DNA of 32,000 nucleotides from Lachnospiraceae bacterium ZAX-1 (GCA_046533095.1 JAJQRA010000035.1:1-32000), one strand, 5' to 3'; counted from the stretch's first letter, positions 155 to 29,428 are shown. Notes: generated by a model not told the origin, from the letters alone. A program made the numbers and translations.

Positions 155-352
155 CTATTTTAATATCCTGTCCGAACCTCCGGTTGCCAGTGTTCCAGCC
201 CCCAGTGTTTCTGTTGCCAGTGTTCCAGCCCCCAGTGTTTCTGTTGCCAGTGTTCCAGCCCCCGATATTGTGATGACCGGTACAATATTTCCCATATTGA
301 CCAAACGCAAGACTTCATCCCAAGGGATTTCACGCACAATTATTTCACTCAT
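155..352 (-). CDS. Small phage hypothetical protein carrying a 3x GAGTLATETL repeat
   Basis: ORF track 155-361. An ATG at 352 (MSEIIVREIPWDEV...) is preferred over the GTG at 361. The C-terminal half is encoded by the 30-bp tandem repeat. Confidence 0.45.
   Translation of the reverse strand: MSEIIVREIPWDEVLRLVNMGNIVPVITISGAGTLATETLGAGTLATETLGAGTLATGGSDRILK
183..265. repeat. 30-bp tandem repeat, ~2.8 copies (gttgccagtgttccagcccccagtgtttct)
   Basis: Copies at 183-212 and 213-242 are identical. The third copy diverges after ~22 nt. The array is in frame within CDS 155-352. Confidence 0.9.
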
Positions 353-377
353 TTTATGCACCTATCCATTCTATTTC

Positions 378-608
378 TCATTTCCTTGATACAAAATCCC
401 GCCTCCTTGCCCGATTTTGCCATTCGATTTCCTTTTTTAGAAATTCTTCAAAGAGAATCGTGTTAAAAACGATGACGCTGTTTTCCTTTAATGGGTTTTT
501 CTTCCTTGCAAAATTCTGGTTTGGGCGATTAAAGTATTTTCTTAGCTCCAACTTGGAAAATCCAAGCGGTTCTAGCTCGCTCATTTTCATCTGCATTTTT
601 GGGAACAT
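378..608 (-). CDS. Phage hypothetical protein (basic)
   Basis: The ORF is open to 725, but the ATG at 608 follows GGAAAGGAGCGAGGAAA. That start also avoids overlap with the RBS-supported small ORF at 634-783. Confidence 0.4.
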   Translation of the reverse strand: MFPKMQMKMSELEPLGFSKLELRKYFNRPNQNFARKKNPLKENSVIVFNTILFEEFLKKEIEWQNRARRRDFVSRK

Positions 609-633
609 TTTCCTCGCTCCTTTCCGCCTCTCC

Positions 634-783
634 TTATTTTTCTTTGATTTGCTCCGCAAAGCACTCGCGCTCATCTGGGACGTTCCCGTTACAGCAGTTT
701 CTTTTAAAACATCCTTCGCACTCAAAATCGAACCCCTCGTACCGCATCTCCACGGAATAGTCCGCCTCGTATCCTTTGCACAT
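634..783 (-). CDS. Small Cys-rich phage protein (49 aa, below the ORF-track cutoff)
   Basis: Manual translation gives MCKGYEADYSVEMRYEGFDFECEGCFKRNCCNGNVPDERECFAEQIKEK. A strong RBS (GGGAGGTGATATAG) lies directly upstream of the ATG at 783. The ORF packs tightly after the stop of 789-1100. Confidence 0.45.
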   Translation of the reverse strand: MCKGYEADYSVEMRYEGFDFECEGCFKRNCCNGNVPDERECFAEQIKEK

Positions 784-788
784 CTATA

Positions 789-1100
789 TCACCTCCCTAG
801 GCTTTTACAGCCTACAATTTTCCCCTCACTGTCCCTTACTATTTCCGCCGGTACAAGTAGATCTGACCGCAGGGGGTTTGCAGATTTTACTAGCTGCGAC
901 ACGATATAAAATGTACCGTACTGGTAAATTGGCAGTCCCTCGCATTTTCCGAACTTGGTCGTAGTCGTTGGTATATCGCCAATCGGCTCGCAGGCTACGG
1001 TGTCCGACTTGAGCCTTATGCTAATACCAGATACTGGGATTGTTTCTCCCCCAATGATGTTGATGGGGTGCGGTGTTGCGTTAATTATTTTTATTTTCAT
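789..1100 (-). CDS. Phage hypothetical protein
   Basis: 103-aa ORF with AAGGAGGAAAAAA before the ATG. It is packed in the operon with its neighbours. Confidence 0.6.
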   Translation of the reverse strand: MKIKIINATPHPINIIGGETIPVSGISIRLKSDTVACEPIGDIPTTTTKFGKCEGLPIYQYGTFYIVSQLVKSANPLRSDLLVPAEIVRDSEGKIVGCKSLGR

Positions 1101-1122
1101 TTTTTTCCTCCTTGAATTTCAT

Positions 1123-1389
1123 CTAATCCTTTGCGATATAGTCGAGTATAAATTTGGCCACAGCTTCTCTTTCTTCTATTGGCAGGGCGGATAGATCAGG
1201 ATTTTCCGAGTTAAGGATAGCGGCAGTGTACTCGCAGACGCGCTTGTTTTCTAAATAGCCTGTTGCATATTCCCTGTTTCCGCTGTGGTTTATTTCGTCT
1301 TCATTGATCAGGCGGTAGACTGCGTACATTGTTTTACCTCCAATCGAATTGCTTGTTACTTCCCATTTGACTTTCGTTTCTTCGTTCAT
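1123..1389 (-). CDS. Phage hypothetical protein
   Basis: 88-aa ORF with AAGGAGAAGAAA before the ATG. Confidence 0.6.
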   Translation of the reverse strand: MNEETKVKWEVTSNSIGGKTMYAVYRLINEDEINHSGNREYATGYLENKRVCEYTAAILNSENPDLSALPIEEREAVAKFILDYIAKD

Positions 1390-1461
1390 TTTCTTCTCCT
1401 TGATTCGATTTCTATATTTATAGTTGCGTTTTGATATTCTTTCCTTTTGGCATTGAAGAAA

Positions 1462-1659
1462 CTACGCCATAGGCTTGCTTGCTTCTTCAAGGCAGGCTCT
1501 TCTAATGGCACTTGTCGTCAGTGCCATTAGATCTATTGCCTGTAATGCAGAAAATCCTTTCCCTTTTATCCAGTCAAATAGTTCGAACCTTAATTCTTCC
1601 TGCTCGATTGTCAGTGTGTTGTATTTCGGAAAATCTCTCTTTTCCCTTGCTAATTCCAT
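1462..1659 (-). CDS. Phage hypothetical protein
   Basis: 65-aa ORF with GGAGGTGAAAAG before the ATG. Confidence 0.55.
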   Translation of the reverse strand: MELAREKRDFPKYNTLTIEQEELRFELFDWIKGKGFSALQAIDLMALTTSAIRRACLEEASKPMA

Positions 1660-1680
1660 CTTTTCACCTCCTTTGTGTCG

Positions 1681-1809
1681 TTATGGTTTCTTGTTCTTCC
1701 TTATCCATCCCCATAAAATCTGTAGCACAAGGGAATTCATTGTTGTCCCGCGTTCCTTTGCTATTTCCCTCAAACCTCCATGCAGCTCTTCGGGGATCCT
1801 TAGTGTCAT
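1681..1809 (-). CDS. Ribbon-helix-helix (Arc/CopG-like) small DNA-binding protein, 42 aa (below the ORF-track cutoff)
   Basis: Manual translation gives MTLRIPEELHGGLREIAKERGTTMNSLVLQILWGWIRKNKKP. It shows the typical RHH pattern (beta strand (T)LRIPEEL, then helix-helix ...A...G.S.N.......). GAGGAAAAGT precedes the ATG at 1809. Confidence 0.55.
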   Translation of the reverse strand: MTLRIPEELHGGLREIAKERGTTMNSLVLQILWGWIRKNKKP

Positions 1810-2017
1810 ACTTTTCCTCATTCTATCAACTCCCTATGATTGTTTACTTTTTGCGTTCTTTATGGTATCATTACTAATGCAGAAAACGCCGAGCCAAGCC
1901 CCGCCCGGGGGAAGGTGTAACGACTGGACACGGAGCAACCTATTTTTGTAGGCTGAAGGCACAGTCTGAACTCATAGGCGACTATGAGAGCTATGCAGAA
2001 ATGACATAGCCACATCT

Positions 2018-2251
2018 TTATGATGGAGCAACAAATTGGATTAATATGGAAAATAGTAAACATGGCGCACTTAAATTTTTAGTAAACAGCACATTGAAAC
2101 CAGCAACGAGTAAAGCAGCGTCCACGATAGCTAATGAGGCACCTTTAGGCGACAACCCTATTTGCAGTCTCGATGAGGTAAGCAATTGCCCTGCCATGTG
2201 GCAACATGTGGTCTGTACTCCGTAAACTCGGCGAAACTCTGCATTTTTCAT
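2018..2251 (-). CDS. Doubtful 77-aa ORF (possible small membrane protein) inside the coding-poor gap
   Basis: It is the only ORF of 60 aa or more on the operon strand between 1810 and 2288. A GAGGA lies ~9 nt before the ATG and the C-terminal half is hydrophobic. No motif was recognised. The local GC is higher than in the neighbours, so this may be non-coding. Confidence 0.25.
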   Translation of the reverse strand: MKNAEFRRVYGVQTTCCHMAGQLLTSSRLQIGLSPKGASLAIVDAALLVAGFNVLFTKNLSAPCLLFSILIQFVAPS

Positions 2252-2288
2252 TTTTCTACATCCTCATCCCCTTTCAAAACTTGGAAAG

Positions 2289-2486
2289 CTATTCTGGAAT
2301 TAGCAGTTTCTCGGTACTACCATTAACGGTAATCTCTCCATCGCTTAGCAGTTCTATCTTGGGGAACGAATCGGCTAGCCGTGCGGCTTCATTTAAAAGC
2401 TCTACAAGCCGATTCATCTTCTCTAGTACTTCGTCTAGCCCTATGGGCATAATCTGTATATATGCTTCCCCTATTTTGTGTTCCAT
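2289..2486 (-). CDS. Phage hypothetical protein
   Basis: The ORF is open to 2588. The ATG at 2486 (MEHKIGEAY...) follows CAGGAGGTGAAAAG. Confidence 0.5.
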   Translation of the reverse strand: MEHKIGEAYIQIMPIGLDEVLEKMNRLVELLNEAARLADSFPKIELLSDGEITVNGSTEKLLIPE

Positions 2487-2523
2487 CTTTTCACCTCCTG
2501 TGGTGGGGTGCTGTGTTAATATT

Positions 2524-2541
2524 TTATAACTTATAGTTAAC
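2524..2541. promoter_or_regulatory. Operator-like site O3 (TTATAACTTATAGTTAAC)
   Basis: Third copy of the TATAACTT-N-AGTTA dyad motif seen in the switch region. It overlaps the 3' end of the cro-like gene. Confidence 0.45.
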
Positions 2542-2740
2542 TCTTTTGTAAAAAAATAATGTCTTCTGGCACTTTTGCGATATCGCAAAACATTTTGAAT
2601 TGTGCGGGCTTTGGTATGATTTTACCCTTCTCCCAGTTTAAGATCGTGGATTTATTGACCTCCATTTTTCTGGCAATTTCTTCTTGTGTCAATCCTGCAT
2701 TAACCCTTGCGGCCGCTAGACTAATTTTATAATCGCTCAT
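2537..2740 (-). CDS. Cro-like XRE-family HTH protein
   Basis: The sequence is MSDYKISLAAARVNAGLTQEEIARKMEVNKSTILNWEKG, a classic HTH_3 signature. The ATG at 2740 follows CAGGAGGTGGCAAAA; the track start at 2749 is a GTG inside that RBS. The gene is divergent from the CI-like gene. Confidence 0.8.
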   Translation of the reverse strand: MSDYKISLAAARVNAGLTQEEIARKMEVNKSTILNWEKGKIIPKPAQFKMFCDIAKVPEDIIFLQKS

Positions 2741-2760
2741 TTTTGCCACCTCCTGAAAAT

Positions 2761-2789
2761 AGTATATTATAACTTTAAGTTAATGTCAA
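2761..2789 (-). promoter_or_regulatory. Sigma-A-type promoter for the cro-like/early operon (TTGACA-17-TATACT)
   Basis: On the minus strand, the -35 TTGACA is at 2784-2789 and the -10 TATACT is at 2761-2766, with a 17-nt spacer. The spacer is operator O1. Confidence 0.6.
2767..2784. promoter_or_regulatory. Operator O1 (TTATAACTTTAAGTTAAT; core dyad TAACTT-T-AAGTTA)
   Basis: A perfect 13-bp palindrome at 2770-2782 lies in the spacer of the leftward promoter. Confidence 0.55.
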
Positions 2790-2819
2790 TAGGTAAAAGT
2801 TATATTTTTTATTTTATTA

Positions 2820-2848
2820 TTGCATTTCTATAACTTTTAGCTTATACT
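2820..2848 (+). promoter_or_regulatory. Sigma-A-type promoter for the CI-like repressor (TTGCAT-17-TATACT)
   Basis: The -35 is at 2820-2825 and the -10 at 2843-2848, with a 17-nt spacer that contains operator O2. Confidence 0.5.
2828..2846. promoter_or_regulatory. Operator O2 (TCTATAACTTTTAGCTTATA)
   Basis: It shares the TATAACTT..AG.TTA motif with O1 and O3 and lies in the spacer of the rightward promoter. Confidence 0.45.
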
Positions 2849-2878
2849 AGTACTATCAAGATGAAAGCGGGTGATTGA

Positions 2879-3286
2879 ATGCCAGAGAGCGAGCTAAACA
2901 AGATTATATCGGAGAAAATAGCATATTATTTAGAAAGAACCGGAAAAACGCAAGCAGGACTAGCTGATTACATGGGCGTATCTCAAGCTACTGTATCAAA
3001 CTGGTGTAATGGAATTAAGATCCCCAGAATGGACAAGATAGACAATATATGTGCATTTCTTGGCGTAAAACGGTTTGATATAATGAATTCAGATGAAAAA
3101 GGGAAGGAGGACATCCAAGGCTACTACATAAATGACGACGCCAGAGAAATGGCAGAATTCATGTTTCGAAATCCAGAGTACAAGGTATTATTTGATGCTT
3201 CTCGGAAGGTTAAAAAAGAAGATATAGAATTTGTAAAGCAAATGATAGATAGGATGAGGGGAGACACATATGATGATGGATGTTGA
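2879..3286 (+). CDS. CI-like XRE-family repressor
   Basis: The HTH_3 signature is KTQAGLADYMGVSQATVSNWCNGIKIPRMDKI. The gene is divergent from the cro-like gene and overlaps the start of the ImmA-like gene. Confidence 0.8.
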   Translation: MPESELNKIISEKIAYYLERTGKTQAGLADYMGVSQATVSNWCNGIKIPRMDKIDNICAFLGVKRFDIMNSDEKGKEDIQGYYINDDAREMAEFMFRNPEYKVLFDASRKVKKEDIEFVKQMIDRMRGDTYDDGC

Positions 3287-3512
3287 CTGCAAAATAATTA
3301 ATTTACCTACTTCCGTATCGGCTTATACGTTGCCAAGAAATGGAGAAAGCTACACGATCGTTATAAACGCAAACCTGACGTACGAAAGACAATTAATTGC
3401 ATATCAGCATGAATTAGAGCATATTTTGAACGAAGACTTTGAAAAAGATATGGACGCAAATTTAATCGAATTTGAACATCGGATTAAAGAAAATTCAAAA
3501 AATATATCATAA
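3270..3512 (+). CDS. Short ImmA/IrrE-like metallopeptidase (HEXXH)
   Basis: It has the motif YQHELEHI (HEXXH) and sits immediately after, and overlaps, the repressor gene. AGGGGAG precedes the ATG. Confidence 0.6.
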   Translation: MMMDVDCKIINLPTSVSAYTLPRNGESYTIVINANLTYERQLIAYQHELEHILNEDFEKDMDANLIEFEHRIKENSKNIS

Positions 3513-3524
3513 AAGGAGAACAAT

Positions 3525-4262
3525 ATGGGGAAAAAATCAAGAGTTATTCATGCAATATCGTCATTTTTAATTATTTTATCAATAGTGGTTAGTTCGCCAA
3601 TAATTTTGCAAGGATTTGGCTCTAACGACATTGTAAGTAATGCAGAAGCTGCATCAAAAACAAAACTAAATAAGAGTGATATATACATAACGGTTGGAAA
3701 TTCTATAACCTTAAAATTAAGTGGAACTAATAAAAAAGTCACATGGTCTAGCAAGGATAATAAAATTGCCACAGTAAAAAAAGGAAATGTGTTCGCAAAG
3801 AAAAAAGGAAGTACAACCATTACAGCAAAAGTATCTGGAAAAAAATACAATTGTAAAGTTGTTGTAGAAAATCCGTCTATTAATATAAGTAAAAAAAATA
3901 TGGACATAGGAGATTCCGTAACTTTAAAAATAAAAAATACCAAGCAAGATATCAAGTGGTCGTCCAGTAATTCTTCTGTAGCTGAAGTTTTTAGCGATGG
4001 TTGGGTTATCGCATTGGATTATGGAACAGCCGTAATCACTGGAAAAGTCGGAGGGTTAAAGTATAAATGCATTGTTACCGTCAAAAACGCTAATTCTAGC
4101 AGCGATACCAACAACGATGTAAGTAGGACTGTATATGTAACGCCAACTGGAAAAAGATACCATTTCAGTCCGACATGCGGAGGGAAAAATTCAAGAGAAA
4201 GTACATTGAATTATGCAGTAAATACACTCGGATTGACCCCTTGTAAAAAATGTGTGCATTAA
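3525..4262 (+). CDS. Membrane-anchored/secreted protein with two Big_2-type Ig-like repeats and a C-terminal His/Cys motif
   Basis: N-terminal hydrophobic anchor (AISSFLIILSIVVSSPII). Two ~75-aa repeats (..G.S.TLK...T...V.W.SS....A.V...G.V.A...GT..IT.KV.G..Y.C.V.V) typical of Big_2. The C terminus is GKRYHFSPTCGG...LTPCKKCVH. RBS AAAAGGAGAA. Confidence 0.7.
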   Translation: MGKKSRVIHAISSFLIILSIVVSSPIILQGFGSNDIVSNAEAASKTKLNKSDIYITVGNSITLKLSGTNKKVTWSSKDNKIATVKKGNVFAKKKGSTTITAKVSGKKYNCKVVVENPSINISKKNMDIGDSVTLKIKNTKQDIKWSSSNSSVAEVFSDGWVIALDYGTAVITGKVGGLKYKCIVTVKNANSSSDTNNDVSRTVYVTPTGKRYHFSPTCGGKNSRESTLNYAVNTLGLTPCKKCVH

Positions 4263-4344
4263 AATAAAAAAAGAAAAGCGTAGACGTTTTAGTAGAAAAA
4301 TCTATCAATAAAAAGCACTTCGGAAAAATAAGGAGGATATATAA

Positions 4345-4626
4345 ATGGCTAGACTGAACTGCCCAAAATGCAAAGGTACTCAAATACAGCTTTTGTCCAT
4401 AGACAACAACATGAAAGTAAAAAACAAGACAACTATTAATTTAAACCCACTCCATCCATTTACATTAGTAAACACAAAAGAGGTAAAAAAAGAGAAAACT
4501 TCTGGGGCGAAAATCGCGGCAGGGCTAGCGACAGGAGGTGCTTCACTTTTATTCACCGGGACTAAGAAAAAAAATCATAATGAATACTTTTGTTCTGGGT
4601 GTGGAAACAGATGGATCGGGAAGTAG
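4345..4626 (+). CDS. Zinc-ribbon protein with a central Gly/Ala-rich hydrophobic segment
   Basis: CPKC near the N terminus and CSGC near the C terminus. The segment AKIAAGLATGGASLLFTG could be a membrane helix. Strong RBS TAAGGAGGA. Confidence 0.6.
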   Translation: MARLNCPKCKGTQIQLLSIDNNMKVKNKTTINLNPLHPFTLVNTKEVKKEKTSGAKIAAGLATGGASLLFTGTKKKNHNEYFCSGCGNRWIGK

Positions 4627-4638
4627 GTATAGAATAAG

Positions 4639-4667
4639 GGAAGTTGCAAATGTAGCTTCCTATTTTT
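4639..4667 (+). terminator. Probable intrinsic terminator after the zinc-ribbon gene
   Basis: GGAAG...CTTCC stem followed by TATTTTTAT. Confidence 0.45.
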
Positions 4668-4699
4668 ATAAAATCGGACTGTCAAGCAATCTTTGACGG

Positions 4700-4733
4700 T
4701 TCAAAGAGAAAGAAGAAGCCAAAACACAGCTTC
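4700..4733 (-). terminator. Probable intrinsic terminator after the coiled-coil gene
   Basis: On the minus strand, a GAAGC-loop-GCTTC stem is followed by TTCTTTCTCTTT. Confidence 0.4.
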
Positions 4734-4745
4734 CCCTTTGACGAA

Positions 4746-4991
4746 TCAGCTTGCTTTTTCAAGCTGTTCCACCCTTTTGTTTAAATTTTGCAAAGCTTTA
4801 GCCTGATCTAGCATCAAGTTGGTCAGGACATCGAACGAATCCGATAGGTGGTCGAGCCTTGTGGAATGGACTTTCAGCGTGTCCTTGATCTCTGCTACAT
4901 CCGTGGTAAGTTGCGCTACATTTGTAGTAAGCTGCGCTACATCCGTGGTAAGCTTTTCCAGTATGGATAATATCTTTTCTTCGTTATTCAT
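4746..4991 (-). CDS. Coiled-coil protein with 3x LTT(D/N)VA(Q/E) heptad repeat
   Basis: The ATG at 4991 (MNNEEKILSILEKL...) follows TAGGAGGAAACAAG. The sequence has heptad-like periodicity throughout. Confidence 0.55.
   Translation of the reverse strand: MNNEEKILSILEKLTTDVAQLTTNVAQLTTDVAEIKDTLKVHSTRLDHLSDSFDVLTNLMLDQAKALQNLNKRVEQLEKAS
4894..4956. repeat. 21-bp tandem repeat x3 (gctacatccgtggtaagttgc)
   Basis: Three consecutive units with 2-4 mismatches, in frame in CDS 4746-4991. Confidence 0.85.
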
Positions 4992-5293
4992 CTTGTTTCC
5001 TCCTATGTGGTTATTCGTTTCCCATCTCGTCATGGCAAGCCAAGGATTCGCAAGGCAAAAGCGAACAAATACTATATAGTATTGAGGTGGGAAATCCTAT
5101 ACAAATGATAACACGGTTCGTCTAAAATGTAAATTAAACTATAAATTAAAAAGAAAGGAGTGACTTCATGGAAGCAATTAAATTTACTCGGGCGTATTTG
5201 CGTATTACGGCGGGGTACTCCGTTAGAAACTAAGTAGGGCATTACCCCCATACCTAAATCACAAATCACAATTCTAAACGAAAGGAGAAATTT

Positions 5294-6397
5294 ATGGCGA
5301 CAAAATACACAGCGGACAAAAATGGAATATTTTCCACCCTTGTGTGGGACGGCACGTACACCGAGGATGGCTCCAAGCATCGAAAACAGATCCGGTCTAA
5401 GAAGTCCAGCAAGGACTTGGAGAACCTCGTCAAACAGTACCAAAGGGATGTAGAGGAACGCAAGGCGGTAAACTCAACAAATATCTCTTTTTGCGACTAC
5501 GCGGAGCAATGGCTTGCGCTGTACAAAGCAAACAGAGAAATTAACACCATCTATGCGTACAAAAACGTCATGAATGCGCATTTTCCGAAAATTAAGGATG
5601 TAAAGCTAAAGGATATCAGAAGGATGCACCTACAAATGCTCTTAAACGACTGCACACCTACGACCGGAAAGAAATTGTATGTAACTTTTAAGCAAATCGT
5701 CAAGTCGGCTATCATAGACCGCTATCTACCTGCAATCGCTATCGAGGACATTTTTGTAGGGGTAGAATGTCCAAGGCCGATACAAAAAGAGCGACGCACG
5801 CTGACAGCAGCAGAAAAGAAAGCTGTAGAGCATGGCGATTTTCTGGCGATGGACAAAGCTTTTTTATATATCATCTATAGCTGCGGACTAAGAAAAGAAG
5901 AGGCTCTTGCCCTCTCTGTCTTTGATATCGACTTTAAAAAATCGGAGATAAGCATAACCAAAGCTTTAGTTTTTGATGGAAACAATCCAGTGCTCAAGGG
6001 GACAAAGAGCAGCCACGGAGTGCGCAAAGTGCCGATGCCCAAAATGCTGCAAGAATACCTATCAGAGTACATCAAAACCCTGCCAGGCACAAACCTTTTT
6101 TTTATGAAAAATAATCCGCATATGACCAGAGCCGGATATGGCGTGATGTGGAACAGAACCAGGAACGAAATCACCCGATACATCAAAGGAGAGGGACAAA
6201 TTCCAGAAAATCTGACGGCGCACATTTTTAGGCACAACTACTGCTCTATGCTTTGCTATCAGATCCCGACCGTATCAATCAAGCGAATTGCCGCGCTGAT
6301 GGGTGACACGCAAAAGGTCGTGCTGGATACATACGACCATATTATTTTAGATAAGGAGGACGCGCAAAAAGCGGTAGAAAATGCGATTGGATTCTAA
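5294..6397 (+). CDS. int: Tyrosine site-specific integrase (phage integrase family)
   Basis: The catalytic signature is recognisable: GLRKEEALAL (Arg), HIFRHNY (His-x-x-Arg) and VLDTYDH (Tyr). The N-terminal region is of the arm-binding/SAM-like type. RBS GAAAGGAGAAA. Confidence 0.9.
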   Translation: MATKYTADKNGIFSTLVWDGTYTEDGSKHRKQIRSKKSSKDLENLVKQYQRDVEERKAVNSTNISFCDYAEQWLALYKANREINTIYAYKNVMNAHFPKIKDVKLKDIRRMHLQMLLNDCTPTTGKKLYVTFKQIVKSAIIDRYLPAIAIEDIFVGVECPRPIQKERRTLTAAEKKAVEHGDFLAMDKAFLYIIYSCGLRKEEALALSVFDIDFKKSEISITKALVFDGNNPVLKGTKSSHGVRKVPMPKMLQEYLSEYIKTLPGTNLFFMKNNPHMTRAGYGVMWNRTRNEITRYIKGEGQIPENLTAHIFRHNYCSMLCYQIPTVSIKRIAALMGDTQKVVLDTYDHIILDKEDAQKAVENAIGF

Positions 6398-6558
6398 CAG
6401 AAATCTAACTTTTTGTGCCGATCTAACGGAAATCTAAATATTAAAAAGCTATAAAAATGCATAAAAAGAACCATTTTAAAAATAGCAAAAATGACTACAT
6501 ACAGCGTAAACACTGCGTTTTCGGCGATTTTTAAGATTTGAAAATATTGAAATAAATT

Positions 6559-9274: not shown

Positions 9275-9328
9275 ACTTCACCATATTTCTATCCTGAATT
9301 CCTGCATTCTTTTCGCGTATACGAAATT

Positions 9329-10254: not shown

Positions 10255-10293
10255 AAAATACCTTCCTTTCAATTCAACAGGTTTTTCCTGTAT

Positions 10294-21943: not shown

Positions 21944-22003
21944 AATCTAAAAAGCTAAGGTACAACGGTGAAATCTAAAAAGCTAAGGTACAACGGTGAA
22001 ATC
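21937..22003. repeat. 28-bp perfect tandem repeat, ~2.4 copies, at the RR stop / HK start junction
   Basis: The unit acggtgaaatctaaaaagctaaggtaca occurs at 21937-21964 and 21965-21992, with a partial copy at 21993-22003. The first unit includes the response-regulator stop codon. Confidence 0.95.
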
Positions 22004-22031
22004 CGAACTTGGATCTAAATGTAGAGGTGAA

Positions 22032-23456
22032 ATGGTGAAACGGACACTTTATTTTAAATTTTTAGCGGGCTATGTGGTATTTGGAATTTTGGGGTTTCTT
22101 GCCGTTGCTACGTTTACCACGCGTGCTACAGCAGACTATATAAAAGAAAGCACAACAGGCCAGTTGTATAAAGAGGCCAATATGATTGCCTCTACCTATG
22201 CACAAAATTACTATAAAAATGCATTGACCGTGAAAGAGGTACAAAATCATTTGCGGGCGATTGATACGTATTTAGATGCGTCAATCTGGATTGTCAATAC
22301 AAGTGGCAAGATTCTTATCAATTCAAGGGAAGATACCGATATCAATAATCTAAGGGAGATAGATGGATTTGATATGTCGTCGTTTGGCAATAAATATTAT
22401 CAGGTTGGAGATTTTTTTAAGAGTTGCAGCGAAGAATGCCTGACCGTGTATTCGCCCATTACGATTAATTATCGTAAAAGGGGATACGTACTCATACATA
22501 AGGCCACAAGGCAGCTTGCCGGGTCATCGAATGCATTTATCAATATCTCGTATGTAACCCTTGCAATTGTGTTCTTATGTGCATTGATTGTGCTTATCAT
22601 ATTTACCTATACCGTTTATGTTCCAATACGAAAAATAACAAAAGCAGCCGATGCCTATGCCGCCGGAAATTTTGACTGGAAATTAGAAAATTTTGCCAAT
22701 GATGAAATCGGTTATTTGGCCGCTTCGTTACATTATATGGCAACAGAACTAAATACGTTAGAGGACGATCAAAGGAAATTTATTGCCAACATATCCCATG
22801 ATTTTCGTTCCCCTTTAACTTCGATTAAAGGCTATGTGGAGGCGATTATGGATGGTACGATTCCGATAGAGGCGCAGGATAAATATCTTGGCATTATCGT
22901 TTTTGAGACGGAGCGTTTAAATAAGTTAAGCGCAAGTATGCTGGAGCTTAATAAATATGGCGTGCGTGGAAGCATGCTTGATGTCAGCAACTTTGATATA
23001 AATCATACAATTAAAACGACTGTCCGTTCATTTGAGGGGACCTGTAAAGAAAAACGGATTTCATTTGAGCTGATCCTTACCGGGCAGACTCTGTTTATTT
23101 CAGCAGACGTAATGAAAATCCAACAGGTGCTTTATAACTTAATTGATAATGCAATCAGGTTTAGCCACCCCGATTCTATGATAACGATTGAAACGACGGA
23201 AAAAAATGAAAAAGTATTCATTTCCGTAAAAGATACCGGTGTTGGAATCCCAAAAGAAAGTTTAAAGAAGATATGGGAACGCTTTTATAAAACAGATGTT
23301 TCTCGAGGGAAAGACAAGAAAGGAACAGGCCTTGGACTGTCAATCGTGAAAGATATCATACAAGTCCATAATGAAAACATCAATGTCATCAGTACCGAAG
23401 GTGTGGGGACGGAATTTATTTTTACATTGCCGATTGCAAAACGAAGTGAAAATTAA
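22032..23456 (+). CDS. Sensor histidine kinase (2 TM, HAMP, HisKA, HATPase_c)
   Basis: H-box SHDFRSPLTSIKGY, N-box LIDNAIRF, G-boxes DTGVGI and GTGLGLSIV. The start is taken at ATG 22032 (MVKRTLYFKF...) after AGAGGTG. The track start at 21996 is a GTG inside the 28-bp repeat. Confidence 0.85.
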   Translation: MVKRTLYFKFLAGYVVFGILGFLAVATFTTRATADYIKESTTGQLYKEANMIASTYAQNYYKNALTVKEVQNHLRAIDTYLDASIWIVNTSGKILINSREDTDINNLREIDGFDMSSFGNKYYQVGDFFKSCSEECLTVYSPITINYRKRGYVLIHKATRQLAGSSNAFINISYVTLAIVFLCALIVLIIFTYTVYVPIRKITKAADAYAAGNFDWKLENFANDEIGYLAASLHYMATELNTLEDDQRKFIANISHDFRSPLTSIKGYVEAIMDGTIPIEAQDKYLGIIVFETERLNKLSASMLELNKYGVRGSMLDVSNFDINHTIKTTVRSFEGTCKEKRISFELILTGQTLFISADVMKIQQVLYNLIDNAIRFSHPDSMITIETTEKNEKVFISVKDTGVGIPKESLKKIWERFYKTDVSRGKDKKGTGLGLSIVKDIIQVHNENINVISTEGVGTEFIFTLPIAKRSEN

Positions 23457-23563
23457 AGTATCAATATCTTATATTTGTGCATACATTGATACAACAATAC
23501 GTTTTGTGAACTGTACGAAAACAGGGTATTAAGATAGAATCCCTTCGTACAGATGGGAGTCCT

Positions 23564-24043
23564 ATGGCATATAATCGCATGAATGCAGTTGCCTATGCGC
23601 ACAGATGGGCATTTGCCAGAAATCCAATGTACATGAACTTTACTGGAATAGGCGGAGATTGCACAAACTTCATTTCCCAATGCATTTTAGCAGGGGGAGC
23701 ACCGATGAATTATGAAAAAACATTTGGGTGGTATTATAATTCATCCAAGGATCGTGCCCCTGCATGGACTGGCGCAAGATATCTTTATAATTTTCTAACA
23801 AAAAGCAAGGAAATAGGGCCTTCGGCAAAGGAAATAGCATTAGAAGAACTGGAAATAGGCGATATTGTGCAAATAACATTTGATGGAATTGTGTTCACCC
23901 ACTCATTGCTTGTAGTTGAAGTACCCGCGAAACCAACCCTTGACACTATTTTGATTGCAACCCACACAAACGACAGCGATCATCGTGCACTGTCCACCTA
24001 TCATGTAGTGCGTTTTCGCTATTTGAAAGTGAATCTACTGTAA
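23564..24043 (+). CDS. Putative amidase-domain (Amidase_6 / NlpC-P60-like Cys peptidase fold) protein
   Basis: The sequence YNRMNAVAYAHRWAFARNP.Y.NF...GGDCTNFISQCILAGG is the characteristic N-terminal Cys motif of this family. There is a downstream His (..THS..). RBS GGGAG. Confidence 0.65.
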   Translation: MAYNRMNAVAYAHRWAFARNPMYMNFTGIGGDCTNFISQCILAGGAPMNYEKTFGWYYNSSKDRAPAWTGARYLYNFLTKSKEIGPSAKEIALEELEIGDIVQITFDGIVFTHSLLVVEVPAKPTLDTILIATHTNDSDHRALSTYHVVRFRYLKVNLL

Positions 24044-24200
24044 ATAGAAAACAGTAGTGATATGCTACCGCAAAAAGATAGCGAAGCAAGTGGAGCAAAA
24101 ATATTATGCCAACGAAAAGGCATGGTATTTTTGCTTTTCCTATACACAGGTGGCTAGCACGAAGTCATTTTTTGTTCGATCGGATAAAAAATGTTTCCAA

Positions 24201-24246
24201 AAATCTACAGTTTTGGAAATAAAAGTGTAGATTTTTGTCTACACTT
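24201..24246. promoter_or_regulatory. Three TCTACA half-sites including a perfect 9-bp inverted repeat, overlapping a likely extended -10 promoter
   Basis: AAATCTACA at 24201-24209. AAGTGTAGA (24223-24231), a 6-nt spacer, then TCTACACTT (24238-24246). This is followed by TGTTATGAT (24248-24256), ~34 nt upstream of the regulator ATG. Confidence 0.4.
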
Positions 24247-24289
24247 ATGTTATGATATTAAGTATAGTAGGCTGAAAGTGGGTAGATAC

Positions 24290-25291
24290 ATGAAGATGGA
24301 CTTGCTGTTAAAACAAGCGTTAGAGGTTTTTCCGAACTTTCTTATCGTTGACGATTGTAGTAAAGTCGCATATTTAAATGAACATTTTGCGGCACTGCTC
24401 GGGATTACACTTGATCGTGCAATTGGAAAACCGGTAACGCAAGTCGTTCCGAATGCAAGACTTGATATTGTTGTAAAAACAGGAGAGGCAGAGATTGGTT
24501 CCTCCATTATTTTGTTTGACCATGTGAAAAATGATTATATCACGGCAATCTGTAATCGGTTGCCGATCAAACAGAACGAAATAACGATTGGTGCAGTGGG
24601 AATTGTTTTTCCGAATGAGCTTGAATGGGAAAAAACAGGAAAGGATTTACAGGACATATTCCCTCTAGAACGGTTTGGAACGAGATCATTTGGGTCGGAA
24701 CGATTTGGATTGCGACCATTTGGAGCAGAACAATTTGGAACGAGGTCGTTTGAACCGCAACGATTTGGATTGCGACCATTTGGAGCAGAACAATTTGGAA
24801 CGAGGTCGTTTGAACCGCAACAATTTGGAACGAGGTCATTTGAATCGGAACAATGTGGATTGCAGGCATTTGGAGCAGAACGATTTGAATCGGAAACATT
24901 ATCCTGCCAACGCATGGAAATGGAGAAAAAAGCAATCATAAAAGCACTGGAAAAAGCCAACTATAATAAGACGAAAGCAGCGCATTTTTTGAATATTGAC
25001 CGTTCGGCACTATACAAAAAAATGAAACGTTATAATCTGTCACAGCATGAGCATGCGATGGATGAAAGTGAGCATGTAGGGAAGAAAAGCGAAAATATAG
25101 AAAACGAAAGCGAGAATGCAGGAAAGAAAAGTGAAAATATAGAAAACGAAAGCGACCATGCAGGGAAGAAAAACGAAAACGTAGAAAACGGAAGCGAGAA
25201 TGCAGGGAAGAAAAGTGAAAATATAGAAAACGAAAGCGACCATCAGGGAAGAAGAGAACAATTTAAAAGAAAGAGAGGCGAGGCATATTGA
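24290..25291 (+). CDS. PAS-domain + Fis-type HTH (HTH_8) transcriptional regulator carrying two internal tandem-repeat arrays
   Basis: The N-terminal region is PAS-like (FLIVDDCSKVAYLNEHFAALLGITLDRAIGKPV...). The Fis-type HTH is MEKKAIIKALEKANYNKTKAAHFLNIDRSALYKKMKRYNL. The start is taken at ATG 24290 (MKMDLL...); the track start at 24191 lies in the promoter region. Confidence 0.7.
   Translation: MKMDLLLKQALEVFPNFLIVDDCSKVAYLNEHFAALLGITLDRAIGKPVTQVVPNARLDIVVKTGEAEIGSSIILFDHVKNDYITAICNRLPIKQNEITIGAVGIVFPNELEWEKTGKDLQDIFPLERFGTRSFGSERFGLRPFGAEQFGTRSFEPQRFGLRPFGAEQFGTRSFEPQQFGTRSFESEQCGLQAFGAERFESETLSCQRMEMEKKAIIKALEKANYNKTKAAHFLNIDRSALYKKMKRYNLSQHEHAMDESEHVGKKSENIENESENAGKKSENIENESDHAGKKNENVENGSENAGKKSENIENESDHQGRREQFKRKRGEAY
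24671..24897. repeat. 30-bp tandem repeat, ~7.5 units, with a perfect 60-bp higher-order duplication
   Basis: 24701-24760 is identical to 24761-24820. The units encode (E/Q)(R/Q)FG(T/L)R(S/P)F(G/E)xx. The array sits between the PAS and HTH domains. Confidence 0.95.
25064..25254. repeat. 42-bp tandem repeat, ~4.5 units
   Basis: Units start at 25064, 25106, 25148, 25190 and 25232. They encode ES(E/D)(H/N)(V/A)GKK(S/N)EN(I/V)EN and form the C-terminal tail after the HTH. Confidence 0.95.
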
Positions 25292-26820
25292 AATTTAACT
25301 TTAGAGGGCTATTGAAAGAAAAAGTGTTTGAATCCGTTCTATCTGTTTTGCCAATTACAGCGATTGTACTGATTTTAAGTATCACCATAGCCCCACTATC
25401 TCCAGGAGCTTTGATATTATTTCTATTTGGAGCATTGATGCTTGTTTTGGGAATGGGATTTTTTACACTGGGGGCAGATTTGGCGATGATTCCGATGGGC
25501 GATGGGATCGGTGCACAGATGAGCAAAGCTAAGAAAATATATATTCCGCTCATTGCGTGTTTTGTTTTAGGTGTGGTAATAACGCTTGCAGAACCTGACT
25601 TACAGGTTTTAGCAGAACAAGTACCGGCAATTCCGAACATGGTATTAATTCTTACCGTAGCGTGCGGGGTAGGTATCTTTCTTTTAATAGCAGAACTTCG
25701 TATGCTATTTAAAATTCCATTATCTTATACACTGTTTTTTTTCTATACGATTATTTTTGCGCTTCTTATTTTCACACAGGATACGTTTATTCCGGTTTCC
25801 TTTGACTCCGGTGGTGTTACAACGGGGCCAATTACCGTTCCGTTTATTATGGCAATGGGTATCGGACTTGCATCAGTGCGAAGTGATAAGAACTCTGCAA
25901 ATGACAGTTTTGGATTGGTTGCGCTTTGCAGTATTGGGCCGATTCTTTCTGTCTTGATATTGGGCATCGTATATGAGCCGGATAATGCAGTCTATACACC
26001 GGTTAAGCTTGAAGAACTGGCATCTACGAAAGAGGCTGCACAACAATTTGCAATTGCGCTGCCTATCTATATAAAAGAAGTGGCAGTGGCATTGGTGCCG
26101 ATTGCGATTCTCTTCTTATTGTTCCAGCTAATATTTAAACGATTTCACCACCATCAAATCGGTCGTATTATTGCCGGCCTTATCTATACGTATATTGGGC
26201 TTGTATTATTTTTAACAGGCGTAAATGTAGGGTTTATGCCAGCCGGTGAGTTTATTGGTGCAACCATCGCAAGCGGTGCCGCAAAATGGCTACTGATTCC
26301 AATTGGTATGCTGATTGGCTATTTTATTGTTAAGGCGGAACCGGCCGTTCAAGTTTTAACCAAGCAAGTTGAAGAAGTTTCCAATGGATCTATTACGGAA
26401 AAATCAATCAGCCACAGCCTATCGATTGGTGTTGCCGTATCGGTTGGAATTGCGATGTTGCGTATCTTGACCGGACTTTCTATTTTGTGGTTTTTAATAC
26501 CCGGCTATGCAATTTCTCTGGTTATGACGTTTTTCGTTCCACAGATGTTTACCGGAATCGCATTTGACTCTGGCGGTGTTGCGAGTGGGCCGATGACGGC
26601 TACGTTCTTGTTGCCTTTAGCAATGGGGGCATGCCAGGCAGTAGGGGGAAACATATTAACAGATGCATTCGGCATCGTGGCAATGGTAGCAATGACGCCA
26701 TTGTTGACAATTCAGATGTTAGGACTTTTTAGCAATATTAGGAAACGGATCGAAAAGGAACGAGGACAAGTTTCACTTGGTGAAATTGAAGATAATATTA
26801 TATACTTCGACGAGGCATAA
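25288..26820 (+). CDS. Polytopic membrane protein with two DUF1538 domains
   Basis: The diagnostic motif appears twice: FDSGGVTTGPITVPFIMAMGIG and FDSGGVASGPMTATFLLPLAMG. There are many TM helices. The TTG start at 25288 overlaps the stop of the regulator gene (ATATTGA), which fits translational coupling. No in-frame ATG lies nearby. Confidence 0.75.
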   Translation: MKFNFRGLLKEKVFESVLSVLPITAIVLILSITIAPLSPGALILFLFGALMLVLGMGFFTLGADLAMIPMGDGIGAQMSKAKKIYIPLIACFVLGVVITLAEPDLQVLAEQVPAIPNMVLILTVACGVGIFLLIAELRMLFKIPLSYTLFFFYTIIFALLIFTQDTFIPVSFDSGGVTTGPITVPFIMAMGIGLASVRSDKNSANDSFGLVALCSIGPILSVLILGIVYEPDNAVYTPVKLEELASTKEAAQQFAIALPIYIKEVAVALVPIAILFLLFQLIFKRFHHHQIGRIIAGLIYTYIGLVLFLTGVNVGFMPAGEFIGATIASGAAKWLLIPIGMLIGYFIVKAEPAVQVLTKQVEEVSNGSITEKSISHSLSIGVAVSVGIAMLRILTGLSILWFLIPGYAISLVMTFFVPQMFTGIAFDSGGVASGPMTATFLLPLAMGACQAVGGNILTDAFGIVAMVAMTPLLTIQMLGLFSNIRKRIEKERGQVSLGEIEDNIIYFDEA

Positions 26821-26838
26821 GGAGAGGGGGTTTGGGCA

Positions 26839-27519
26839 ATGGCAGAAAGACAAGAAGGTACAAAGCTGATTATATCGATCGTAGAACGCGGACAGGGAAA
26901 AAACCTCACCAAGATATATTCGCAAAATAATGTATCTTTCCATTATAAAAGTTATGGAATAGGAACGGCGTCTTCGGAATTGCTGGATGTCATCGGTTTT
27001 GGAAGTACGGAACGAGATATTTTATTTAGTGTTGCCACTACAGCCAATGCAAATATGCTGATGAATAAATTAAACAATGAACTAGATAGTAGCATTGACG
27101 CAAAAGGAATTGCAGTTGATCTATCGATTACGGCAATGAATGCAATGGTTGCAGCTGTATTAATGCGGCAGGGGCAGGTGGAACAGCAGAATGGAGGAAT
27201 CAAAATGGAACAGGAAGGAAATAACAGCCTTATCGTTGTGATCATAAACAGAGGATGTACGGATGATGTGATGAATACTGCCCGTGCTGCAGGGGCAAGA
27301 GGCGGTACGATCATACGTGCAAGAGGCACGGGGGCTGAACATATCGAGGCATTTTATGGCATTACCTTTCAAGCGGAAAAAGAAATTGTATTTATTGTCG
27401 CCTCAGGGGAAAAAAGGAATGCTATCATGGAAACGGTAAATAAAAAACATGGTTTAAATACGGAAGCGGCAGCCATGCTTTTCTCCCTTGGAATTGACCA
27501 GATTCAGCGTCTCGGATAA
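26839..27519 (+). CDS. Tandem P-II-like signal-transduction protein (two P-II-type halves)
   Basis: The second half (LIVVIINRGCTDDVMNTARAAGARGGTIIRARGTG....EKEIVFIVASGEKRNAIMETV) matches the P-II-like pattern. The first half (KLIISIVERGQGKNLTKIY...YGIGTASSE...ERDILFSVAT) is a diverged copy. The gene starts 19 nt after the DUF1538 gene. RBS GGAGAGGGGG. Confidence 0.65.
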   Translation: MAERQEGTKLIISIVERGQGKNLTKIYSQNNVSFHYKSYGIGTASSELLDVIGFGSTERDILFSVATTANANMLMNKLNNELDSSIDAKGIAVDLSITAMNAMVAAVLMRQGQVEQQNGGIKMEQEGNNSLIVVIINRGCTDDVMNTARAAGARGGTIIRARGTGAEHIEAFYGITFQAEKEIVFIVASGEKRNAIMETVNKKHGLNTEAAAMLFSLGIDQIQRLG

Positions 27520-27523
27520 AGGC

Positions 27524-27612
27524 TATGGATTGAAGATACGCAAGGAAGGTACCAAATATCCATCGCTCATCTTATCAAACGTTTGTATGGATTGGATGCG
27601 CAAGGAAGGTAC
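27524..27612. repeat. ~28-nt motif repeated at a 62-bp period upstream of the TM1266-type gene
   Basis: 27524-27552 reads tatggattgaagatacgcaaggaaggtac and 27586-27612 reads tatggattggatgcgcaaggaaggtac. Confidence 0.8.
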
Positions 27613-27639
27613 GGCTGAACCGTTACGTGGAGGTTAAAT

Positions 27640-27891
27640 ATGGATACAAGGGTTGCTATCATAGGGATTATTGTGCAAGAGGAAGCATCGGTAGAAAGGC
27701 TGAACCAGATATTGCATGATTATGCCAAATATATTATCGGACGTATGGGGTTGCCCTATCGTGAGAAAGCGGTGAGTATCATTAGTATCGCAGTGGACGC
27801 GCCACAGGATACAATTAGTGCTTTGGCCGGAAAACTAGGGAAACTATCCGGCGTAAGCAGTAAAGCGGTCTATGCTCCGATAGGCAAGTGA
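27640..27891 (+). CDS. TM1266-family (ACT-like) putative iron-only hydrogenase system regulator
   Basis: The sequence RVAIIGIIVQEEASVERLNQILHDYAKYIIGRMGLPYREKAVSIISIAVDAPQDTISALAGKLGKLSGVSSK matches my recollection of the TIGR03959-type family. The gene lies next to hydF. RBS GGAGGT. Confidence 0.7.
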   Translation: MDTRVAIIGIIVQEEASVERLNQILHDYAKYIIGRMGLPYREKAVSIISIAVDAPQDTISALAGKLGKLSGVSSKAVYAPIGK

Positions 27892-27917
27892 TTCTAATCT
27901 AAATAAGAAAGCCCCTC

Positions 27918-28110
27918 GCAAGATGCAAGTGACTGGATGGGTGGCAGACGATCCGCTCAAGCAGGAGAAGCCCTCCTTGCAAGATGTAAGCGACTAGATG
28001 GGCGGCAGACGATCTGCCCAAGCAGGAGGAGGGCTCCCGCACAAGATGTAAGCGACTGGATGGGCGGCAGACGATCTGCCCAAGCAGGCGAAGGGTTTCT
28101 TCGCAAATGT
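27918..28110. repeat. 61-62-bp tandem repeat, ~3.3 copies, each with a GGCAGA-CGA-TCTGCC hairpin, in the hydF leader
   Basis: Units start at 27918, 27979 and ~28041, with a partial unit from ~28093. The consensus is gcaagatgtaagcgactggatgggcggcagacgatctgcccaagcaggaggagggctcc. Confidence 0.9.
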
Positions 28111-28150
28111 ATGCGACACGAAAGATAAACAGGAATGGAGGAAATATAGC

Positions 28151-29428
28151 ATGGGATTAAACAGTACGCCACAATCTGATAGGATACATATCGGATTTTT
28201 TGGGAATAGAAATGCGGGGAAATCAAGCGTTGTAAATGCAGTAACAGGTCAGGATTTATCCGTAGTTTCAAAGGTGAGTGGAACCACAACAGATCCGGTA
28301 TTAAAATCCATGGAATTGTTGCCGATGGGGCCAGTGGTTGTGATTGATACACCCGGTTTTGATGATGAAGGTGAACTTGGAGCACTTCGCGTGAAAAAAA
28401 CGCATAAGATTCTAAATAAAATAGATGTTGCTGTCTTGGTTGTGGATGCTTTAGTCGGGAAAAATAAGACGGATGAACAGTTGATTTCTATCTTTAAAGA
28501 GAAAGAGATCAATTACATTCTTGCATACAATAAATCGGATTTGCTGGTGAAGCAAGAGCGGCGATTAGACGATGGATTACAGGTAGAGCAAGAGCAGCGG
28601 TCGGACGATGGATTGCAGGCAAGGCAAGCGCAGCAATTGGACAATGAACTATACATAAGTGCAAAAACAGGCTACCAAATAGAAGAGTTGAAAGAAAAGA
28701 TAGCGACATTAAGTGTGACAGATGATCTAACACATAAGATCATAGGGGATTTGATTTCACCTTTGGATTTTGTCGTATTGGTTATTCCCGTTGATTCTGC
28801 CGCACCAAAAGGTCGGCTGATCCTACCGCAGCAACAGACGATCCGCGATGTCCTAGAGTCAAATGCAACTGCGATTGTTGTACAGACAACACAGCTTAGC
28901 GATACTCTAGCACAACTTGGCAAAAAGCCAAAGCTTGTCGTTACAGACAGCCAGGCATTTGAAAAAGTCAATGCCGATACACCAAACGATATTTTACTAA
29001 CTTCCTTCTCCATCCTTTTTGCCAGATATAAGGGCGATTTAGAATTGACAGTGAAGGGGGTAACGGCGCTTCATACTTTAAAAGATGGGGACACGGTATT
29101 AATTTGCGAAGGTTGTACACACCATCGTCAATGTGACGATATTGGAACCGTAAAACTGCCTAGATGGATTAAAAAATTTACAAATAAAAATTTGAATTTT
29201 GAATTTACATCCGGAACGGGATTTCCGGAAGATTTAACGGAGTATCAATTGATCATCCACTGTGGTGCCTGTATGCTCAATGAGCGGGAAGTGAAATATC
29301 GCATGAAATGTGCGAAAGGGCAGAATGTACCAATTACAAATTATGGCATTGCCATTGCATATATGCATGGAATTCTAGAACGGAGCGTGGAGGTATTTCC
29401 GGATATATTAGCGCAGGTTAGAAAATGA
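28151..29428 (+). CDS. hydF: [FeFe]-hydrogenase H-cluster maturation GTPase HydF
   Basis: GTPase motifs GNRNAGKSS (G1), DTPG (G3) and NKSD (G4). The C-terminal cluster-binding Cys/His motifs are CEGCTHHRQC and HCGACM. RBS GGAGGAAATATAGC. Confidence 0.85.
   Translation: MGLNSTPQSDRIHIGFFGNRNAGKSSVVNAVTGQDLSVVSKVSGTTTDPVLKSMELLPMGPVVVIDTPGFDDEGELGALRVKKTHKILNKIDVAVLVVDALVGKNKTDEQLISIFKEKEINYILAYNKSDLLVKQERRLDDGLQVEQEQRSDDGLQARQAQQLDNELYISAKTGYQIEELKEKIATLSVTDDLTHKIIGDLISPLDFVVLVIPVDSAAPKGRLILPQQQTIRDVLESNATAIVVQTTQLSDTLAQLGKKPKLVVTDSQAFEKVNADTPNDILLTSFSILFARYKGDLELTVKGVTALHTLKDGDTVLICEGCTHHRQCDDIGTVKLPRWIKKFTNKNLNFEFTSGTGFPEDLTEYQLIIHCGACMLNEREVKYRMKCAKGQNVPITNYGIAIAYMHGILERSVEVFPDILAQVRK
28552..28648. 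repeat. 36-bp tandem repeat, ~2.7 units, inside hydF
   Basis: Units at 28552-28587, 28588-28623 and 28624-28648. They encode QERRLDDGLQVE/QEQRSDDGLQAR/QAQQLDNE, directly after the G4 NKSD motif. Confidence 0.85.

Follow-up and report, generated by a model that had tools for sequence, protein, structure and literature searches.

Short tandem arrays were analysed in a stretch of 32,000 nucleotides from Lachnospiraceae bacterium ZAX-1 (GCA_046533095.1, JAJQRA010000035.1:1-32000), and this whole stretch is hereafter called the window. The window contains an integrative mobile element, accessory DNA, a conserved core with rlmD, yhaM, htrA, mutS2 and the genes of a response regulator (RR) and a histidine kinase (HK), and a further region with a sigma-54 activator gene and hydF. 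Prophage, accessory DNA and conserved core all carry arrays, which are separated by gaps of 0.1–4.7 kb and whose units abut head-to-tail without spacers. An earlier note on this DNA had described them as a burst of young duplications that also hits housekeeping genes.

Detection of tandem arrays and reference loci

Tandem Repeats Finder (TRF) was run on the whole window with the settings 2 5 7 80 10 50 500, and an array was counted if its period was ≥12 and its score ≥70. Eleven non-redundant arrays were obtained, with which our own period scan and a direct-repeat search were concordant, and four further arrays that were too diverged or gapped for TRF were legible by repeat search and direct reading, giving 15 real arrays (Table 1), nine of them inside open reading frames (ORFs). 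The count of at least 17 in the earlier note was too high; 27524–27612 was rejected as a tandem array, as a 28-nt motif merely occurs twice there (at 27524 and 27586) and the intervening and following sequences are unrelated. Clustered regularly interspaced short palindromic repeats (CRISPR) were also ruled out, since the units have no spacers and the 27524/27586 pair comprises only two copies. The MutS2 loci of 160 relatives (2.31 Mb), which are orthologous to the window region, served as the baseline and were searched with the same array criteria.

Table 1. Tandem arrays and mobile-element genes in the window (unit length, copy number and unit identity are given for arrays)
Feature	Position	Strand	Detection or location
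30 bp ×2.7, 100%, sub-period 15 bp	183–263	−	TRF
21 bp ×2.9 (3 units), 82%	4894–4956 (TRF span to 4954)	−	TRF
15 bp ×3.8, 100%, plus one decayed copy	6572–6641 (perfect part to 6628)	−	TRF
35 bp ×2.2, 95%, one mismatch	8282–8357	−	TRF
72-bp pair, 41-nt core at 90%	12449–12561	−	repeat search and reading
45 bp ×2.1, 89%	15755–15847	−	TRF
15 bp ×2.7, 96%	15867–15908	−	TRF
55 bp ×1.9, 84%	16866–16969	−	repeat search and reading
Decayed 56–63 bp ×2, 7-nt indel	18459–18578	not assigned	repeat search and reading
18 bp ×6, about 55–60%	18990–19097	+	repeat search and reading
Nested junction duplications, including 28 bp ×2.4, 100% at 21936–22003	21917–22040	+	TRF
30/60 bp, 7 units	24667–24900 (TRF span to 24859)	+	TRF
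21/42/84 bp, 4.5 × 42 bp	25064–25253	+	TRF
61–62 bp ×2.9 (3 units), 85%	27913–28110 (TRF span to 28095)	+	TRF
36 bp ×3 (TRF 2.3 copies at 28551–28634), 72–81%	28541–28648	+	TRF
Cro/CI-type repressor	2879–3286		mobile element
Secreted protein, Ig-like (Big_2-type) repeats by eye	3525–4262		mobile element
Tyrosine integrase	5294–6397		mobile element

Array density relative to chance and to relatives

Arrays are far denser in the window than expected by chance or from related genomes, as the earlier note had supposed. The chance expectation was 0.005 arrays per window in 200 second-order Markov simulations based on the trinucleotide statistics of the window. The relatives' loci contain 65 arrays in 2.31 Mb (0.028/kb, and 0.011/kb in the nine cultured isolates among them), compared with 0.344/kb in the window; the relatives' density thus predicts about 0.9 arrays per window against the 11 TRF arrays, an overall excess of 10–12×. 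Arrays cover 3.4% of the bases of the window and 0.29% of those of the relatives, and the maximum in any relative locus of at least 20 kb is four arrays. When the comparison was restricted to the orthologous block rlmD-yhaM-htrA-mutS2-RR-HK, three arrays were found against 0.13 expected (22×, P = 4e-4), and the density was unchanged after removal of the mobile element (9 arrays in 25.5 kb). The nearest MutS2, among 185,579 species-representative genomes and a metagenome collection, is only 70% identical.

The excess depends on the similarity between units, being 45× at ≥95% identity, 14× at 85–95% and 4× below 85%, the last value not being significant. An excess that climbs with identity points to a raised recent input or to slow removal of fresh duplications. 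Three TRF-detected arrays with periods not divisible by three (non-3n) are found within the roughly 9 kb of DNA that is non-coding or pseudogene, about tenfold above the non-3n arrays of the relatives by a rough estimate, which indicates that neutral DNA is enriched as well.

Insertions in conserved genes

The array in mutS2 encodes a 30-aa Ser/Asp-rich insertion (residues about 116–151), whose 18-bp units have grown from the local ...ADSLD sequence. This insertion is absent in the 12 closest relatives, and the MutS2 matches in all 160 relatives are about 2.36–2.42 kb long versus 2.47 kb in the window, which makes them about 100 nt shorter. The rlmD gene keeps its ancestral start, with ATG at 15963, GGAGG upstream and an overlap with the yhaM stop, and about 64 aa have been inserted between the conserved start of RlmD and its TRAM domain. 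The insertion holds both the 45-bp array, whose unit duplicates the first codons of the TRAM domain, and the 15-bp array, which encodes ENTGY units, and it is absent from the relatives examined. HydF, which matches a ZAX-1 protein exactly, has 425 aa versus a modal length of 400–402 aa; the 36-bp array encodes 12-aa units in the GTPase loop after the G4 motif NKSD, and the additional 24 aa correspond to exactly two of these units.

Two further duplications of this region lie at gene boundaries. The 55-bp duplication derives from the 5' end of the yhaM coding sequence. Its upstream copy lies out of frame and does not code, which leaves the YhaM protein untouched; this copy supplies the GGAGG before the ATG at 16912. 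The coding sequence of yhaM is therefore intact with the duplication upstream of it, contrary to the claim that the gene itself is hit. In the closest relative (L001), the RR stop and the HK start overlap as GTGA. In the window, the sequence of this junction is present twice as an older, diverged duplication, within which the perfect 28-bp ×2.4 array is nested, the first copy retaining the stop and the last copy the start.

None of the insertions in MutS2, RlmD, HydF, the RR/HK junction and upstream of hydF was present in any relative examined, and the units are copies of local sequence, which supports insertions that are specific to this lineage. MutS2, RlmD and HydF do carry arrays. Such hits on housekeeping genes are not unique, because independent in-frame insertions have arisen at the same HydF loop and rlmD 5' end in other lineages, and only the density is unusual. 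In an alignment of HydF homologues (P0034, P0040, P0113 and P0039), the G4-motif loop has unrelated insertions in several lineages, and those of P0034 and P0040 are themselves repeats (AGETKEAE units). Near the rlmD start, a 33-bp array occurs in L005, L029 and L083 and a 39-bp array in L003 (7193–7305); the RlmD N-terminus of L029 reads MKKNDRAEVIS-MKKNDLVEVKIED. This recurrence suggests that the rlmD 5' end is a tolerant or slippage-prone spot.

Several additional observations were made on these genes. Other Lachnospiraceae have tandem duplications of independent origin at the 5' end of rlmD or where yhaM meets rlmD, and in the HydF homologue P0039 a segment of roughly 31 aa is tandemly duplicated where the dimerisation domain begins. 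Inside rlmD, a 30-nt pair at 14593–14661 (39-nt spacing, i.e. a 39-bp period, 80% identity) encodes ANVVDPAKKT / VDVIVVDPPRKG beside the catalytic DPPR motif. This pair may go back to an old in-frame duplication within a loop of variable length, and L001 is at least as long as the window here. The decayed 56–63-bp duplication lies between the divergent genes htrA and mutS2. In this region (17000–18650), the direction of the genes and the sign of the GC skew both switch, the cumulative GC skew has its minimum near 17 kb, and the switch probably mirrors the purine bias of coding strands.

The sigma-54 activator gene and the region upstream of hydF

A syntenic locus of a relative (L162) carries, in order, a sigma-54 activator gene (protein P0002), a DUF1538 gene, a PII-like gene, three further genes, a TM1266-like gene and the gene of a 401-aa HydF, and its DUF1538 protein is 83% identical to that of the window. 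No array of period ≥12 was found in the 13.4 kb of L162. P0002 is an intact activator of 464 aa (L162 6001–7395) with PAS, sigma-54 AAA+ and HTH_8 domains. The window ORF at 24191–25291, whose product is 100% identical to the NCBI protein MFP3155835.1 (LQZ18_15690) of ZAX-1, aligns with the PAS and HTH ends of P0002 and lacks the AAA+ domain of roughly 290 aa, in place of which the decapeptide array ERFGxRxFGx stands between PAS and HTH_8. This gene had been labelled a PAS-Fis regulator; it is instead a sigma-54 activator orthologue stripped of its AAA+ domain. A 75-aa C-terminal tail that P0002 does not have is made up by the 42-bp array, at a place where L162 has an intergenic gap of 33 nt. 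The frame of the window gene remains open and runs into the start of the DUF1538 gene that follows. The ORF is thus that of a derived and probably crippled regulator, and it is not clearly live.

Between the TM1266-like regulator gene and hydF, the 61–62-bp ×3 array accompanies a gap of 260 nt versus 29 nt in L162. A structured RNA or tandem riboswitch was considered for 27913–28110 and rejected, as no Rfam match was obtained at the gathering or E ≤ 1 thresholds and the fold z-score of −1.8 against shuffled sequences was not significant. Three genes of L162 (9677–12945) are missing in the window between the PII-like and TM1266-like genes, namely those of a PALP enzyme, a MarR regulator and a radical-SAM protein, the last of which is likely HydE. 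The 28-nt motif pair described above lies in the 120 nt left over at this place (window 27519–27640) and could be either a pair of operators or the scar of a deletion.

Reading frame, gene decay and age of the arrays

All nine arrays in open frames have a period divisible by three (3n), and the periods of 35, 55, 56–63, 28 and 61–62 bp are confined to DNA outside intact frames. This partition, described in the earlier note, holds as stated and is the outcome expected from selection on reading frame. As evidence it is largely circular, an ORF with a non-3n duplication no longer counting as intact; for three of the 3n arrays, which sit in terminal tails, frame is of little consequence, and the relatives are biased likewise (47 of 65 arrays are 3n). 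The description of the frames as live is doubtful for the ORFs at 155–361, 6559–6864 and 24191–25291.

The 35-bp duplication frameshifts the gene of an O-antigen-ligase-like (Wzy_C-like) membrane protein, whose Wzy_C match is below the Pfam cut-off. Deletion of 8317–8351 restores a frame of 470 aa, so the claim that this duplication breaks the gene was borne out, although the gene carries at least one lesion beyond it (at least two in total). This frame-breaking duplication and those spanning gene boundaries indicate that the input of duplications is blind to frame. The 72-bp pair duplicates the SHNDSDHFD metal-binding motif in the decayed remnant of an MBL-fold gene, and a squalene-cyclase-like or prenyltransferase-like gene is split by a frameshift near 11740 that does not lie at a homopolymer. 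Gene remnants form a cluster at 11250–13100, in which a 33-aa fragment resembles a WYL domain by eye, a resemblance that no search confirmed.

The unit identity is 100% in three arrays and then 97, 96, 91, 89, 85 and 81%, down to about 55–60% in MutS2. Between units, the synonymous divergence is 0.33–0.54 in five of six coding arrays measured, and the ratio of nonsynonymous to synonymous differences (pN/pS) is 0.26–0.84; the counts are small, and these values are a rough guide. A single burst of young arrays, as previously proposed, does not fit a unit divergence that extends from 0 to about 40% and that speaks for a long-running process. The excess is still skewed to young, near-perfect arrays, which indicates that the process is active now or that fresh duplications are slowly removed.

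Origin of the arrays

Across all arrays, no k-mer common to units or junctions was found beyond random expectation, in line with the suggestion of a sequence-unspecific process. Periods range from 15 to 84 bp without a preferred length and include the nested series 15/30, 30/60 and 21/42/84. The lack of a shared k-mer and of a preferred length, together with the nested periods, fits slippage or microhomology duplication followed by repeat expansion. Junction microhomology was read from the relation in which array length equals 2 × period + arm, and amounts to an exact match of 2 nt in the 35-bp array, 12 nt in the 28-bp array and about 3 nt in the 45-bp array; the other arrays are multi-copy or eroded. 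As arms are legible in these three young arrays only, the slippage or microhomology step is an inference.

On balance, the explanation that we favour is that many independent duplications of 15–85 bp of local sequence arose in tandem without regard to frame, expanded and were filtered by selection, and that they have been retained or fixed at 10–40× the rate of the relatives. The duplication itself would be made by a frame-blind, sequence-unspecific copying error, probably replication slippage or template switching between short direct repeats (also known as microhomology-mediated tandem duplication), and a two-copy array could then expand to produce the nested 15/30, 30/60 and 21/42/84-bp periods. 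Selection would purge the duplications that break needed genes. The survivors would be in-frame copies in tolerant loops and termini (MutS2, RlmD and HydF), boundary-spanning copies of which one retains the stop or start (the RR/HK junction and the yhaM start), intergenic copies, and copies in dispensable or decaying genes (the O-antigen-ligase-like gene, the MBL remnant and the truncated sigma-54 activator). Such a process is of a known kind, and its density is unusual.

A bolder and rather doubtful extension is that ZAX-1 is a natural tandem-duplication hypermutator, in which duplications of 15–85 bp are fixed throughout the genome at 10–40× the rate of relatives through a heritable change in how lagging strands or Okazaki fragments are processed (a task of the bacterial flap nuclease that corresponds to Rad27), in exonucleases acting on single strands or in the stability of the replisome. 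If this were true, the lineage would lengthen conserved proteins, uncouple overlapping genes and inflate intergenic DNA by one mutational route.

Several points weigh against the favoured explanation. All array data come from one 32-kb window, which may be unrepresentative or may have been noticed as extreme, and the baseline is approximate because many relatives are short-read metagenome-assembled genomes and a few loci are duplicated (e.g. L005 = L083). At least two arrays (183–263 and 4894–4956) are inherent repeats of phage protein families and not new duplications. The junction microhomology is weak evidence, being legible in two or three young arrays and eroded elsewhere. By a rough count, non-coding and pseudogene DNA make up about 30% of the window, which is high for a bacterium, and relaxed selection or weak deletion bias could consequently explain much of the retention without a higher mutation rate.

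Weighing of alternative explanations

The last point leads to the possibility that retention and not production is abnormal, i.e. that duplications arise at an ordinary rate and are poorly purged owing to a small effective population or relaxed selection, weak deletion bias or lost repeat-collapse pathways. The decayed genes of the window (ligase-like, squalene-cyclase-like, the MBL and WYL remnants, the activator without its AAA+ domain and the three-gene deletion relative to L162) accord with it, as do the persistence of old arrays with their high synonymous divergence and the nearly neutral pN/pS of 0.6–0.8 in the MutS2, HydF and RlmD units. The youngest arrays are nevertheless the most in excess and non-coding DNA is enriched too, which selection at the protein level cannot explain, while weak deletion bias stays compatible. 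We consider poor purging as the sole cause to be unlikely, and it and the favoured explanation are not mutually exclusive. The enrichment of young arrays and of non-coding DNA favours a raised input or a slow collapse of duplications, and production, rather than retention, may be raised. Somewhat less likely still is a local or sampling effect, in which an outlier window of accessory DNA and prophage was drawn from an ordinary genome. A single window was seen, its first 6400 positions belong to the mobile element, and the segments 6500–14300 and 23500–32000 are not syntenic with the relatives' MutS2 loci; this explanation has to contend with arrays that are spread over prophage, accessory DNA and conserved core, with the 22× enrichment of the conserved rlmD-HK block alone and with a density that is the same outside the mobile element. 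The process may reach beyond the window.

The arrays might instead be individually functional and selected, serving as flexible linkers or tails, as spacing or operator arrays upstream of hydF, or in the uncoupling of overlapping genes. This proposal draws on the NTGxx and heptad repeats that are conserved in their phage families, on the low pN/pS (0.26–0.27) of the coiled-coil array and the 14-aa tail array, and on the GGAGG supplied by the upstream yhaM copy, yet the MutS2, RlmD and HydF insertions are absent in all relatives, one duplication destroys a gene, the array upstream of hydF has neither an Rfam match nor a significant fold, and a tenfold excess across unrelated genes is explained by no function; we regard it as improbable. 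A dedicated enzyme-driven duplication system, based on a nuclease, a recombinase or a reverse transcriptase, is very improbable, since nothing except the high density speaks for it, no motif or junction sequence is shared, none of the periods of 15–84 bp is preferred, no candidate gene lies beside the arrays, and relatives show the same kinds of event less often. Hardly any weight is given to an assembly or sequencing artefact. Three arrays of 100% identity (183–263, 6572–6628 and 21936–22003) and the 35-bp pair are conceivably mis-assembled, but most arrays have diverged copies, which no assembler makes, the arrays of 40–230 bp are within or comparable to the read length, and the record is a 181.7-kb contig of an NCBI isolate assembly.

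Comparison with known repeat systems and significance

Microhomology-mediated tandem duplication has been reported to be universal and to seed multi-copy repeats, and it is raised by the loss of Rad27 in yeast (bioRxiv 10.64898/2026.02.28.708716); earlier work in Escherichia coli and Schizosaccharomyces pombe dealt with microhomology duplication and RecA-independent slippage (e.g. PMC8639346). The arrays of the window resemble its products in being head-to-tail local copies of tens of bases, in growing from two copies to many, in lacking sequence specificity and in occurring in coding and non-coding DNA. They differ from the process as described in that the fixed events are 10–40× denser than in related genomes and microhomology arms can be read in no more than two or three of the young arrays.

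The closest repeat-rich analogue is Ehrlichia ruminantium, where tandem repeats that are tens to hundreds of bases long far exceed the norm and lengthen intergenic regions, according to PMC10710844, which cites Collins 2005 and Frutos 2006. The accumulation of arrays is similar in ZAX-1, judged from one 32-kb window at 0.34/kb. In contrast to ZAX-1, E. ruminantium is described there as an obligate intracellular bacterium with expansion and contraction in non-coding DNA, whereas nine of the 15 arrays of the window are in open frames, including those of conserved enzymes, and ZAX-1 is a cultured Lachnospiraceae bacterium of free-living type. Contingency loci of Haemophilus and Neisseria have units of 1–9 nt in many copies in the promoters or 5' ends of surface genes (PMC2651432), and share with the present arrays slippage-prone repeats that are able to shift reading frames. 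Phase-variable contingency loci were rejected as an assignment; the units here are of 15–84 nt in 2–7 copies, they lie in housekeeping genes and intergenic DNA, and TRF found no long microsatellite. Only the arrays at 183–263 and 4894–4956 belong to the intrinsic repeat proteins of phages (pentapeptide and heptad coiled coil), in which copy number varies within the family, and they are set apart from the other 13 arrays, for which the relatives compared (at MutS2, RlmD, the RR/HK junction, HydF, the regulator tail and the region upstream of hydF) have no such repeat.

If the excess extends over the whole genome, ZAX-1 would offer, in culture, a bacterium whose single-copy sequence turns into tandem repeats fast enough for direct study. 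It could then reveal bacterial functions that suppress short tandem duplication, for which the yeast data point to Rad27/FEN1, map where MutS2, RlmD and HydF tolerate inserted repeats, and show how overlapping genes are separated by duplications that span stops and starts. If the excess is confined to this region, the arrays would represent a common and well-understood type of mutation that is unusually dense here.

Mobile element and neighbouring features

The integrative mobile element occupies window positions 1–6450, with a fragment of a ParB-like gene at the window start. Searches of phage and plasmid collections with this element gave one weak phage match and no plasmid match, and the closest relative of its integrase in IMG/VR has 47% identity. 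A scan of promoters and terminators gave results at background level.

The array at 183–263 (ORF 155–361, minus strand) corresponds to the NTGxx pentapeptide repeats of a widespread family of small phage proteins. Proteins of this family have a conserved N-terminus IVREIPWDEVLR, a (NTGxx)n segment of highly variable copy number and, at the C-terminal end, a conserved domain with ...ECGQLWW...; the number of NTGxx units varies among 80 IMG/VR loci, and a GenBank phage has 8.3 copies of the 15-bp unit (L161 1449–1591). In the window, frame −1 reads GWNTGNRNTGGWNTGN, the conserved N-terminus is in frame −2, and the C-terminal domain of the family is absent. As the N-terminus and the repeat are in different frames, the gene looks frameshifted or truncated, and its perfect 30-bp units show recent local expansion. 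The array at 4894–4956 encodes LTTDVAQ heptads in a 95-aa coiled-coil prophage protein, whose relatives have heptad repeats of their own.

The array at 6572–6641 encodes (TPGDV)n at the C-terminal end of a 101-aa ORF with a signal peptide (6559–6864), the stop following directly after the array. No viral relative of this TPGDV protein was found. The ORF adjoins the integrase end of the mobile element and may have been truncated by the insertion of the element. Two 21-nt direct repeats follow the integrase at 6393–6442 and may represent integrase arm sites or the attachment site.

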